DNA of 64,000 nucleotides from Acetobacter sp. CAG:977 (GTDB lineage: Bacteria; Pseudomonadota; Alphaproteobacteria; CAAGCB01; CAG-977). The notes below the pieces were generated by a model. It saw only the letters and a program-made list of their open reading frames with translations. It searched no databases and was not told the origin of the DNA. The stretch covers positions 109,869 through 173,868 of the forward strand of contig HF994935.1 of NCBI GenBank assembly GCA_000434295.1, given 5' to 3'. Numbering within the stretch: the stretch's first letter is position 1; every line of letters begins with the position of its first letter. This document shows, one piece after another, positions 15,264 to 19,595 of the stretch. Made by a program: the position numbers and the translations under genes.

Positions 15264-15665
15264 TCAGTTATCTCTGTCGGGAACGGTTTCCACGAAAATC
15301 AAATCATGAACTCCCGACGTTTTTAAAATCAGGGTTTGCCCTTTTAATTCGTACCCCGACACGGTCGGCAGAACCTTTAAATATTCCTGTTCTGCCTGCA
15401 TCAAAGGCATGGGGCCCATCATCATTGTCGTTCCCGCGGGCGAAAATTCCATTCTTCCTTCGGGTTTTAATTGATAAGACCCGAAATACCTGTTCACGGC
15501 GGCGTTTCCGGCGAATCTGGGGTCTTTGGCATCAAAAGCGATGGTGATTTCCGCATTGTTCGGAGCATTGACCAATTTATAAGTTCTGCCTCTGAAATCG
15601 CCCGTATTGTTATAGACGGCGCATCCTGACAGCAGTAACGCCGCAACGGCGAATAATTTTTTCAT
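15264..15665 (-). CDS. META-domain (HslJ-like) lipoprotein
   Basis: Lipobox LLSGC. The body resembles the META/HslJ domain (AGNAAVNRYFGSYQL...MMMGPMPLMQAEQEYLKVL). Its start overlaps the stop of the upstream LRR gene by 4 nt. Confidence 0.7.
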   Translation of the reverse strand: MKKLFAVAALLLSGCAVYNNTGDFRGRTYKLVNAPNNAEITIAFDAKDPRFAGNAAVNRYFGSYQLKPEGRMEFSPAGTTMMMGPMPLMQAEQEYLKVLPTVSGYELKGQTLILKTSGVHDLIFVETVPDRDN

Positions 15666-16978
15666 TTAGAGCCCTTTCCTTTGTTTTTTAACAACAAATC
15701 GGTAACGGCCGAGCGCATGACTTCGTTTTTGATTTTCTGGAACGAAGGGCGTCCGTGCCGTCCGTCAAGCTGCCATTTGTCGGCTTCGGGGACGGCGTTC
15801 CATGCCGTTTGCATTTCTTTAGCATCTTTCCATTTGTTTTTCACGAAAATTTCGGGCAACAATTCCGCGGCGGCGGCATTTTCGATAAACGTTTTGCCGT
15901 CACCGGTCGGTTCCAGACATTCTTTTGCCGATAACGGAGCTTTGTGCACGGCCAACACTTTCGGCAACAGCCCCGTGTCAAACCCCTGAGCCAGAGTGTC
16001 CGCAAGCATCAGCGGCAAATCTGCCGCATATTCGACTTTTTTTCGATAAGCTTCACGAAAAGCAATGCGGTGCATCTGTTCCATACGGGCGTTGAAGATC
16101 GGTTTGCGGTTTCCGTCATCCCAGTTTTTTAGTTCGCAAACGGCTTTTTCCAACCGCGTCTGATGCGAAGAAAACATATCGGCAATGACCGAAGACACGC
16201 GACGTTCGGCATCCATTCCGCCGCTGGCAAAAGTCAGAACGGTTTCTTTGACGTTTGATTCCGTTAAGCCTTTGCACATTTCAACGGCGGTTTCTTCGTT
16301 CAATTCGATAAAGTGCGCCGAAAAAAACTCTAACTTTGACGCGGGCAGATTTTTGGCAACAGCCTGTAATGCCGATTGCGATATTTTCGGGTTATACGAA
16401 ATATCCAAGTGTTTCAAAGACGATTTTGCCAAAGCATTCCCCAATTCGTCTCCGCCGTAAGCCGCGCCGACGGATTGACAGGACAGCTTTTCAAGCGCGG
16501 CCGTTTCCAACAGCGGCGCCAAACGTTCGAAAAACGGTTCCGCCATGGTGTTGGAATTAATCGTCAAAGATTTAATCTTTCCGCTTCCGATTATTCCGAG
16601 GACGGCATCGGTACATTCTTTGTCGCCGTTAACGGCGTTTTGAGAAATGTCCAGACGTTCCGTTTTTGATTCTTTGAGGGCGTTCAATAATTTGATGACG
16701 GCTTTCGGTCCCGCCTTTGCGCCGTTAAGGCTTAATTCTTTCAGTTCGGGGATTTCGCGCAAATTGTCGGCAAGCCAGCTTACGGATTCTTCCGTTACGC
16801 AGGCTTTTCCCATATTCAGCGAAGAAATTTTATATTTGGCGGCGGCTTGTAAAAAAGATTTCGTATATTCTTCTCCCGTCATCGGAGATTGCGGCGTAAA
16901 AGGCTGATCTTGACGGTGCGAATACATACGGCGGATGTCTTCGTTTAAAGCCTTTAATTCTTCAAAAGACAAACTCAT
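15662..16978 (-). CDS. RNI-type leucine-rich-repeat protein, paralog 1 of 3, with a conserved C-terminal domain of unknown function
   Basis: 438 aa with no signal peptide. LRR units such as LKELSLNGAKAGPKAVIKLLNAL and LKHLDISYNPKISQSALQAVAKNL. C-terminus has KWKDAKEMQTAWNAV...KWQLDGRHGRPSFQKIKNEV, shared with the two upstream paralogs. Confidence 0.7.
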   Translation of the reverse strand: MSLSFEELKALNEDIRRMYSHRQDQPFTPQSPMTGEEYTKSFLQAAAKYKISSLNMGKACVTEESVSWLADNLREIPELKELSLNGAKAGPKAVIKLLNALKESKTERLDISQNAVNGDKECTDAVLGIIGSGKIKSLTINSNTMAEPFFERLAPLLETAALEKLSCQSVGAAYGGDELGNALAKSSLKHLDISYNPKISQSALQAVAKNLPASKLEFFSAHFIELNEETAVEMCKGLTESNVKETVLTFASGGMDAERRVSSVIADMFSSHQTRLEKAVCELKNWDDGNRKPIFNARMEQMHRIAFREAYRKKVEYAADLPLMLADTLAQGFDTGLLPKVLAVHKAPLSAKECLEPTGDGKTFIENAAAAELLPEIFVKNKWKDAKEMQTAWNAVPEADKWQLDGRHGRPSFQKIKNEVMRSAVTDLLLKNKGKGSK

Positions 16979-18288: not shown

Positions 18289-19595
18289 CTGCCTGCGTTC
18301 CTTTTATTCAGGTTGGTATAGACGGCTTTTCTCATGATTTCGTTTTTAATTTTCTGATACGACGGTCGCCCGTTTTTCCCGTCCATCTGCCATTTGTGCC
18401 GTTCGTCGACGTTTTGCCAAGTCTTTTGAAATTCTTTGGCGTCAACCCATAAAGAGGTTTTGAAAATCAATGCCAGTTGTTCCGCGCGGGCGGCTTTTTG
18501 AATAAAAGGGATTCCCGCGGCGTCGGAAGCAAGGCATTCGGCGGCGCTTAAAGGCTTTTTACGTCCTGCCAACGCTTGGGGCAACACCCCCGTTTCCAAT
18601 GCGTCGCACAACGTTATGCCGTCAGGTGCTTTTTCGACGTTTTTCTTTTCCGCCGTTTTCTGCGCGATGCTTTTTCTGTAAGCGACGTTTTTTAGCAAAG
18701 CTTCTCGGGCAGCCAGCATATCTTTTGATTTTTCGTGCGGCGTGTTAAACGTGGTTATGAAAACGTTTTCCAGACGGTTTTGCCCCGATTTTAACATTTT
18801 TTCGGCTTCTTTGAAAAAAGCGTCGCTGAAACGCGAAGAAGCGGAAAAATAAAAATATGATATTTCCGTGTTCGGAATCATCTGCATCAATCGGATGGCT
18901 TCGGGTTCTTTGAAATCATAGCATCCGCGCATATTCAGACGTCTGATTGTCGAATTCGGCAAAGAGTCGATGAAAATGTTTTGTGCTTTCGGGTCGTTAA
19001 AACTGCTGAACGCGAGAGAAACCAGCTTTGTGCGGTTCATGATTTCCACAAAGGCTCTGCAACCTTCGGGATAGGAAATGACGCCTTCGATATCCAGATC
19101 GCGGATATTCGTGTCAGGCAGGACTTTGGAGAGTTTTTCCAAAAATCCGAAACGTTTTTCGCCCATTGAAGTTTGGTGAAGGGACAAGATTTCCAACGGA
19201 GTATTTTTTGCGACGTTCAACAAAAGGGGCACGGCGGCATCGGGCAGTTCGACTCTGTTCAGGGAGAGCTCTTTGATTTTTGAAGTTTCCAAAGCTTTTA
19301 AAAGAGCGATGCCGCCCTTTTTCCCCGGTTTTGAATCGTTAAGGTTTAACCCTTCCAAATTCGGGGCAAGGTGCAAATTTCTTGCCAGCATCTGGACGTG
19401 ATTGGAACCGAAATAATCGCATTCGGCAAAGGACAGCTTTTTAATCCCCGCGTTTTCGGCGGTTTTTAACAGATTTTGCCACGACTCATCGTCCGGCATG
19501 GGAAACGGGCAGGAAAAGAACCTGTCTTTTTTTGCAGAGTCCATGCGGGAAAAAAGCTTTTCGATGTCTTCCGTTTTCGGTCGGTCAAAAGCCAT
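18285..19595 (-). CDS. RNI-type leucine-rich-repeat protein, paralog 3 of 3
   Basis: 436 aa. LRR units (LEGLNLNDSKPGKKGGIALLKAL / IKELSLNRVELPDAAVPLLLNV). Same C-terminal domain (HKWQMDGKNGRPSYQKIKNEI). First gene of the operon. Confidence 0.7.
   Translation of the reverse strand: MAFDRPKTEDIEKLFSRMDSAKKDRFFSCPFPMPDDESWQNLLKTAENAGIKKLSFAECDYFGSNHVQMLARNLHLAPNLEGLNLNDSKPGKKGGIALLKALETSKIKELSLNRVELPDAAVPLLLNVAKNTPLEILSLHQTSMGEKRFGFLEKLSKVLPDTNIRDLDIEGVISYPEGCRAFVEIMNRTKLVSLAFSSFNDPKAQNIFIDSLPNSTIRRLNMRGCYDFKEPEAIRLMQMIPNTEISYFYFSASSRFSDAFFKEAEKMLKSGQNRLENVFITTFNTPHEKSKDMLAAREALLKNVAYRKSIAQKTAEKKNVEKAPDGITLCDALETGVLPQALAGRKKPLSAAECLASDAAGIPFIQKAARAEQLALIFKTSLWVDAKEFQKTWQNVDERHKWQMDGKNGRPSYQKIKNEIMRKAVYTNLNKRNAGR

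Follow-up and report, generated by a model that had tools for sequence, protein, structure and literature searches.

What kind of system is encoded where three diverged leucine-rich repeat (LRR) genes run head to tail into a lipoprotein gene? The question is posed by positions 15264-19595 of a 64,000-nt stretch of contig HF994935.1 from Acetobacter sp. CAG:977 (the whole stretch is hereafter the window), where a preliminary description, made before any database search, had recognized three LRR paralogs, here called A, B and C, followed by a gene for a META-domain lipoprotein, and had proposed a dedicated recognition or effector module. We find that A-B-C-META is a real, conserved and translationally coupled four-gene operon of a human-gut alphaproteobacterium, and that its three LRR proteins end in a common domain (the C-domain) that defines a family without prior description, found so far in alphaproteobacterial or unassigned metagenome contigs only. 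LRR and META are ordinary domain types; the novelty lies in the C-domain, which belongs to no established family, has no known fold, and ties this gut-bacterial operon to a widespread alphaproteobacterial operon for a VWA protein, an ATPase, a small protein and a repeat protein.

Organization of the operon

The features of the operon, with positions in the window, are as follows.

18285-19595, minus strand: gene A, an open reading frame (ORF) of 436 aa with an LRR region and a C-terminal domain
18288-18620, minus strand: C-domain of A (aa 326-436); motif W..AKE.Q..W...WQMDGKNGRPSYQKIKNE; basic tail NKRNAGR
16975-18288, minus strand: gene B, an ORF of 437 aa with the architecture of A; C-terminal domain at ~aa 325-437 (nt 16978-17316)
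15662-16978, minus strand: gene C, an ORF of 438 aa with the architecture of A; C-terminal domain at ~aa 326-438 (nt 15665-16003)
15264-15665, minus strand: META lipoprotein gene, an ORF of 133 aa (PF03724); signal and lipobox, LLSG followed by C, at aa 1-15 (nt 15621-15665)
18285-18288, 16975-16978 and 15662-15665, minus strand: ATGA stop/start overlaps of A/B, B/C and C/META
18289-18310, 16979-17000 and 15666-15690, minus strand: AAGGA motifs embedded in the tail codons
15203-15248, minus strand: intrinsic terminator with a 14-bp stem (15248-15213, 7 G-C pairs), an 8-nt loop and a T-rich tail, TGTTTTTCTT
19625-19652, minus strand: promoter-like site, TTGCCG, a 16-nt spacer and TG-TATTAT, from a consensus scan only

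Three minus-strand ORFs of 436-438 aa, joined to one another and to the META gene by 4-nt ATGA overlaps, had been reported before, and here the ORFs and the junction sequences agree (AGATGAAC at A/B, AGATGAGT at B/C and AAATGAAA at C/META); the strong terminator placed after the META gene is likewise borne out by its stem and T-rich tail. An AAGGA Shine-Dalgarno motif stands 8-12 nt ahead of every start in the operon, and those of B, C and META coincide with Lys/Gly/Arg codons in the basic tail of the protein encoded just before, so that tail composition and translational coupling constrain each other. The promoter-like site lies 30-57 nt 5' of the gene A start, inside the 176-nt intergenic gap that separates A from a 491-aa ORF.

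Leucine-rich repeats and a common C-terminal domain

All three proteins carry LRRs of the ribonuclease-inhibitor (RNI) type, as had been proposed, B and C being recognized by sequence and A by structure prediction. B matches ribonuclease inhibitor 4peq (E 1.4e-19) and Pfam LRR_6 (E 1.9e-10) and C matches ribonuclease inhibitor (E 2.4e-7); a sequence search with A returned no match, and a Pfam scan gave no match for either A or C. In the AlphaFold model of A, the one member of the three for which a full-length model was made (pLDDT 89.4, pTM 0.81), an N-terminal cap precedes nine RNI-type strand/helix (beta/alpha) turns (~aa 50-285, nt 18741-19448) and a long helix (aa 287-316). Foldseek relates this model to NLRP and ribonuclease-inhibitor structures (E 6e-9 to 1e-7), and the LRR solenoid expected from the earlier reading is thus found. 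Nine repeats can be read in each of A, B and C. With ribonuclease inhibitor and NLR LRRs (Pfam LRR_6) they share LxxLxLxxN repeats of 26-30 residues, a helix on the convex side and a nine-turn horseshoe; in contrast, they lack an F-box and any NTPase domain, NACHT included, and add a new C-terminal domain. They differ from both groups, too, in being bacterial and encoded as three coupled paralogs.

A hydropathy scan shows neither a hydrophobic N terminus nor a transmembrane segment in A, B or C (maximum KD19 <1.4), in agreement with the absence of Sec signals noted before. The Lys/Arg-rich tails are present as described (NKRNAGR in A, AAKKGKNR in B and KNKGKGSK in C), and the last 20 residues carry a net charge of +3 to +5. 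The paralogs had also been called only weakly similar. This holds for their LRR parts, which share 22-23% identity, but not for the last ~110 residues, which are 42-50% identical between paralogs and constitute the best-conserved part of the proteins, a region that the preliminary description had taken merely for a 'tail'.

In the model of A, this C-domain is compact and helical, with a beta-hairpin bearing WQ.DG..GRP, a final helix and the basic tail; modelled in isolation from a 75-sequence alignment, it reaches a pLDDT of 92.9. Its operational signature, F.P..W..(A)K.MQ..W..V...Q.DG..GRP.F...KN plus a basic tail over ~110 aa, is present in A, B and C, and D, G, G, R and P are invariant across 27 diverse members. 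A hidden Markov model of the family recovers the C-domains of all three with E values from 1.5e-39 (B) to 3.8e-44 (C), and these domains are strongly basic (pI 9.0-9.9). No model in Pfam, NCBIfam, PADLOC or PHROGs covers the C-domain, and a fold search with its model returned no significant match (best E 2.8 in the PDB and 1.1 among BFVD viral predicted structures). Ankyrin-design structures are among the non-significant fold matches, and comparison of the C-domain profile with PDB sequences yields marginal matches to designed ankyrin repeats over its first half (E 0.008-0.06); from these suggestive similarities, the C-domain may be ankyrin-derived.

Conservation and evolutionary rate of the cassette

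Is this arrangement a maintained unit? Three or more lineages keep A, B, C and META in this order as one-to-one orthologs, and the 4-nt overlaps are mostly unchanged as well (loci and contigs are given as L numbers). The cassette occurs in conspecific metagenome contigs from the human gut and other sources (L028-L032) and in close relatives (L002, L003); in a second lineage comprising 'Alphaproteobacteria bacterium HGM16795' (L001), where we take HGM to denote a human-gut metagenome-assembled genome (MAG), and L004-L006; and in a third, more distant lineage (L025-L027). Orthologs of A were identified in L001, L003-L006 and L025, and the ATGA overlaps are preserved in L001 as in L003, and for the most part in L004, L005 and L025. 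Across the lineages the paralogs number exactly three, vary little in length (432-441 aa) and keep their order. Because this order recurs with one-to-one orthologs in independent lineages, the arrangement is not a product of chance. The ABC-F gene ettA lies downstream in most loci, the upstream neighbour differs between loci, and the region as a whole is core chromosome (rpoD, dnaG, ATP synthase, ettA). Among 5.8 billion proteins the cassette is confined to a few related lineages; in a word-indexed homology search, which lacked sensitivity here, the C-domain alone gave two chimeric fragments and the full alignment gave the narrow clade only.

Within this conserved order, the genes evolve at roughly ten times the rate of ettA next to them. 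Identity to L003 is 97.3% for EttA, 91% for META, 59% for A, 70% for B and 66% for C; identity to L025 is 91.6% for EttA, 47% for META, 41% for A, 45% for B and, at paralog level, 27.5% for C. A and B have one-to-one orthologs in lineages in which EttA is 90-97% identical, as does C in all but the most distant of them; the triplication is therefore old and maintained, as the preliminary description had supposed. Estimates of dN/dS by NG86 are 0.17-0.24 for A, B and C, 0.045 for META and 0.02 for EttA, and within the species 0.19 for B and 0.14 for C; values above that of EttA yet below 1 indicate that A, B and C are fast-evolving under purifying selection. Decaying or functionless duplicates that merely resemble an operon might also evolve fast, lack Pfam matches (as A and C do) and have no known function, but we regard this explanation as very improbable, given that all four frames are intact and of near-constant length in every lineage and in the conspecific contigs, that dN/dS is as low as 0.14-0.24, that the structure models are confident, and that the overlaps and Shine-Dalgarno motifs are conserved.

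The divergent 491-aa ORF beyond the promoter-like site (19772-21247, plus strand) was considered as a fifth cassette member and rejected, as it is not conserved at that position in related lineages. It contains an internal duplicated segment (GGKFARVGHDGQKTARFEGKDLGG / NGKLARGGHDGEKTARFVGKNPGE), occupies the same position in conspecific gut contigs, and has no match in Pfam, NCBIfam, PADLOC or PHROGs.

The wider C-domain family

How far does the C-domain extend beyond the cassette? Searched exhaustively with a profile of the domain, a set of 1.84 billion representative proteins yielded 93 relatives (E <1e-3), nearly all of 400-500 aa, with the domain at the extreme C terminus and a short Lys/Arg tail that very often ends in Arg. 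Among the 75 members scanned for N-terminal modules, 22 carry LRR_6 and 11 carry ankyrin repeats, while in a 432-aa member from L008 the module is lectin-like and is targeted by a diversity-generating retroelement (DGR) with the following parts.

L008, 11410-14880: DGR
L008, 11410-12015: bAvd-like gene
L008, 12067-12183: template repeat (TR), 117 nt
L008, 12444-13481: reverse transcriptase (RT) gene
L008, 13724-13840: variable region (VR)

All ten TR/VR mismatches fall at template adenines. The VR is situated in the N-terminal lectin-like part of the target and not at the usual C terminus; the target protein ends in the C-domain. Tandem arrays of C-domain genes are a further feature of the family, with five genes in L007, at least four in L011, several in L014 and L015, and at least nine in L016. 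Occurring behind three kinds of binding module, one of them retroelement-hypermutated, and multiplied in tandem, the C-domain points to a modular recognition system.

A metagenome scan with a narrower C-domain alignment gave 7 loci. Neither tblastn on plasmids and phages nor a pattern scan of IMG/VR found a match to the C-domain, and with these searches empty a mobile-element or phage origin of the family was rejected. One sub-family (P0104, P0106, P0113, P0114, P0121, P0124, P0127, P0148 and P0151) begins with an N-terminal MGFLxxLF...KK that resembles an amphipathic membrane-targeting or signal motif and does not occur in the window proteins. In the human-gut sample C104, the cassette contig L026 (coverage 4.48, GC 54%) and two contigs with arrays of LRR-C-domain genes, L014 and L015 (coverage 4.13 and 4.15, GC 55-56%), may derive from one genome, which would then hold both the cassette and extra arrays.

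A VWA/ATPase operon linked to the C-domain

C-domain genes stand directly after three homologous genes in L008/L009/L019, L010 and L016. This trio, for a VWA protein, an ATPase and a small protein, is homologous in L008, L010, L016, L021 (Micavibrio sp.) and L023, and in each of these C-domain or repeat proteins are encoded immediately after it; in some genomes, arrays of LRR-plus-C-domain genes directly follow. The operon occurs in MAGs of Alphaproteobacteria and in metagenome contigs without assignment, and its coordinates were established in four loci.

L010, 3933-11509: VWA/ATPase operon
L021, 6667-14403: VWA/ATPase operon
L023, 6827-14523: VWA/ATPase operon
L016, 79-5720: VWA/ATPase operon

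The first protein (~1000-1100 aa) combines an acidic middle of low complexity with a VWA/MIDAS domain (DxSGS; VWA E 1.5e-6) at its C terminus; the second (~870-920 aa) is a P-loop ATPase with Walker A and B motifs (GxPGxGKSF, LDExN), from a family of at least 168 clusters, of which those named by a source are all hypothetical proteins from alphaproteobacterial MAGs, Micavibrio sp. among them; and the third has ~110 aa. A fourth gene, present in L010, L021 (the Micavibrio contig), L023 and L024, encodes a protein of ~490-500 aa with 3-4 repeats that are homologous to the C-domain (domain E 1e-10 to 1e-25) and lack its DG..GRP insertion. By this homology, the C-domain is a single-copy derivative of the fourth-subunit repeat that has been attached to a variety of binding modules. 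The trio proteins have neither a transmembrane segment nor a signal peptide, and they and the repeat protein are predicted to be soluble. The operon of VWA, ATPase, small and repeat proteins appears to be without prior description, and working out the system to which it belongs would assign a function to a sizeable set of 'hypothetical' proteins.

In two loci the VWA/ATPase operon lies between dksA/fliX and suhB/zapA. The VWA protein contains a HEIGHS (HExxH) motif in L008, L016 and L021, which is degenerate in L010 and L023. A 1553-aa protein of the window (57824-62485, minus strand), whose only recognizable part is a DUF6782 putative metallopeptidase (E 1.7e-27), was considered as a relative of the VWA protein and rejected (hhalign probability 0.1).

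A possible docking role for the C-domain

What, then, might the three LRR proteins do? The explanation we favour, at somewhat less than an even chance, is that A, B and C are made together in the cytoplasm as three recognition subunits and dock through their shared C-domain. A docking role is the most economical one, because a conserved C-domain joins interchangeable binding modules and is homologous to a subunit of the VWA/ATPase operon; the LRR would then be the specificity module. Fixed paralog number, near-constant length and translational coupling suggest three non-redundant subunits, possibly a heteromer, and if the C-domain docks and the LRR confers specificity, A, B and C would be non-redundant in recognition. 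Made in fixed proportion in the cytoplasm, as the ATGA coupling would fit, they may plug into a common partner, most likely a VWA/ATPase machine encoded elsewhere in the genome. Alternatively, A, B and C might bind each other, their three domains mimicking in trans a three-repeat fourth subunit. The META lipoprotein would be co-expressed and co-evolving with them in a role that this model leaves unexplained, and the biological function could be conflict or immunity sensing, or the recognition of prey or host.

Several observations weigh against this explanation. Neither the 64-kb window nor the 10 kb around any cassette locus contains a VWA, ATPase or small-protein gene, which leaves the coupling to a VWA/ATPase machine in this organism unproven. 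Despite its Walker motifs, the trio ATPase has no Pfam AAA+ match, so that we infer the very nature of the partner machine. Other genomes carry from 1 to 9 or more copies of C-domain genes; the idea that three domains mimic three repeats therefore cannot be general. The META lipoprotein, predicted to be exported, fits poorly with a purely cytoplasmic complex. Finally, concave LRR positions are not more variable among orthologs than the rest of the protein, which provides no direct signature of a ligand arms race and leads us to make no claim of positive selection.

A more far-reaching version of the docking explanation, which we hold to be possible and rather doubtful, would make A, B and C interchangeable specificity subunits of a machine restricted, so far, to Alphaproteobacteria. 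That machine would consist of a soluble VWA/MIDAS protein, a giant divergent P-loop ATPase and a small protein, and would recruit LRR, ankyrin and DGR-diversified lectin modules through a novel, ankyrin-derived docking domain, its repertoire being diversified by tandem gene amplification and retroelement mutagenesis. It would represent ATP-driven recognition of a new kind, serving conflict or immunity or directed at prey or host, with the gut cassette as a derived form that has acquired an envelope lipoprotein partner. Working out the system could reveal a new mechanism of ATP-driven sensing or targeting in Alphaproteobacteria, including Micavibrio and abundant uncultured gut species.

Precedents for such a machine are pairs of an AAA+ (MoxR-type) ATPase and a VWA protein that remodel targets with substrate adaptors, namely CbbQ/CbbO, NorQ/NorD and RavA/ViaA. 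As in these MoxR/VWA systems, a large P-loop ATPase and a VWA/MIDAS protein stand together in loci of the wider family, where C-domain genes follow them directly; unlike them, the ATPase matches no Pfam AAA+ model, and the window cassette has no adjoining ATPase or VWA gene. Kaur et al. (2020) described vWA-MoxR ternary conflict systems and the theme of a 'diversifying NTP-dependent system' (PMC7159879), a theme that the L008 locus shares in that it, too, has a DGR. By Pfam and NCBIfam, the wider-family loci contain no VMAP, iSTAND, FtsH or effector enzyme domains, and PADLOC matched neither the four cassette proteins nor those of the trio.

Effector-like features and described systems

Could the three proteins instead leave the cell? 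The C-domain and basic tail might together act as a bipartite export signal for translocated effectors, whose binding modules (LRR, ankyrin or lectin-like) would engage proteins of a host, a protist or prey while the META lipoprotein helps at the envelope. By analogy this is conceivable, and we judge it unlikely. Substrates of the Bartonella VirB/VirD4 type IV secretion system (T4SS), the Bep proteins, carry a BID domain and a positively charged tail. A, B and C resemble them in having variable N-terminal modules, a common C-terminal domain of ~100 aa with a basic tail, tandem paralogs and an alphaproteobacterial host; by contrast, the C-domain shows no BID-like fold and no sequence or fold similarity to solved structures, although the PDB holds BID structures, and copies of it also form repeats within a subunit of an operon. 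Eukaryote-type LRR and ankyrin modules joined to one common C-terminal domain would suit effectors, but no secretion-system genes adjoin any locus examined, and T4SS genes in particular are absent from the 64-kb window, the 10-kb flanks and every locus read. Almost every family member has the short Lys/Arg-rich tail, very often with a final Arg, but Shine-Dalgarno motifs inside the tail codons account for part of this composition, and the operon-embedded repeat protein, apparently a subunit and not cargo, has the same type of tail. The operon does include an exported lipoprotein, A, B and C do evolve fast, and the habitat is the human gut, with a related operon in a MAG of Micavibrio, a predatory genus; against this, all partner proteins are predicted to be soluble, and the searches of plasmids, phages and IMG/VR were without matches. 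If the proteins were nonetheless secreted, a human-gut commensal would possess a new family of effectors and, with it, an export domain of a new type.

Of the module first proposed, its dedicated, multi-paralog character and recognition-type LRRs hold up, whereas its effector or host-interacting side gains no support, given the lack of adjoining secretion genes at the independent loci examined and of an export signal; that the operon tied to the C-domain elsewhere encodes soluble proteins only was likewise counted against it. Variable LRR recognition modules followed by a common C-terminal anchoring module, in tandem paralog clusters, are also characteristic of Listeria internalins, whose LRRs are 22 residues long and which carry Sec signals and anchors of the LPXTG or GW type; A, B and C differ from these in their ribonuclease-inhibitor-type repeats of 26-30 residues, the lack of a signal peptide and an unrelated C-terminal domain. 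As a whole, then, the cassette belongs to no described system, its closest logic being that of families that combine a variable repeat module with a common anchoring or docking module. That the gene combination was not a recognized system had been stated at the outset, and the databases concur, with Pfam, NCBIfam, PADLOC and PHROGs naming only LRR and META; literature on LRR/META, RF32 and Micavibrio yielded nothing relevant.

The META lipoprotein and a possible envelope role

The 133-aa product of the fourth gene matches Pfam META PF03724 (E 5.7e-20, 71.8 bits; cut-off 24), and its sequence contains a signal and lipobox, MKKLFAVAALLLSG followed by C. In its META domain and lipoprotein signal it is like E. 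coli HslJ/META1. It gave no match in PADLOC, and in PHROGs a spurious signal-peptide match only. To our knowledge, no META protein has been described as coupled to LRR genes, and we know of no function assigned to the META domain itself. The proposed link between the LRR proteins and the lipoprotein is sound within the cassette clade, where the META gene holds the same position in every locus, but does not extend to the wider C-domain family, at whose other loci the gene is absent throughout.

This linkage bears on another alternative, in which the cassette would be a scaffold for envelope or housekeeping purposes, specific to its clade and with no relation to the VWA/ATPase operon. The basic C-domain would bind the inner membrane face or nucleic acid, the LRR proteins would form a heteromeric scaffold, and the operon would serve an envelope or stress function with an HslJ-like META lipoprotein, next to the gene for the translation factor EttA. 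We give this alternative little credence. It is consistent with META linkage in every lineage of the clade, with the core chromosomal site and conserved position beside ettA, with the strongly basic C-domains, with dN/dS well below 1 and with a cassette that is invariant among conspecific gut samples. A housekeeping role is harder to reconcile with A being only 41-59% identical where EttA is 92-97% identical, or with the restriction of the cassette to so few lineages, and it leaves the wider-family arrays, the DGR-diversified member and the adjacency to ATPase and VWA genes unexplained.

Neighbouring observations

Just past the hydroxyisourate hydrolase gene, the conspecific contig L032 carries phage-like genes (Phage_tail_APC, Mom; 103-2461) where the window has tRNA-Met (21813-21889) and rpoD, which suggests a prophage or a rearrangement near tRNA-Met. 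RpoD itself (21982-24096, minus strand) contains a very long acidic insert of Asp, Glu and Ser at about residues 190-280. Elsewhere in the window, positions 10937-11932 (minus strand) encode a GGGtGRT-family protein (PF14057, E 1e-194).

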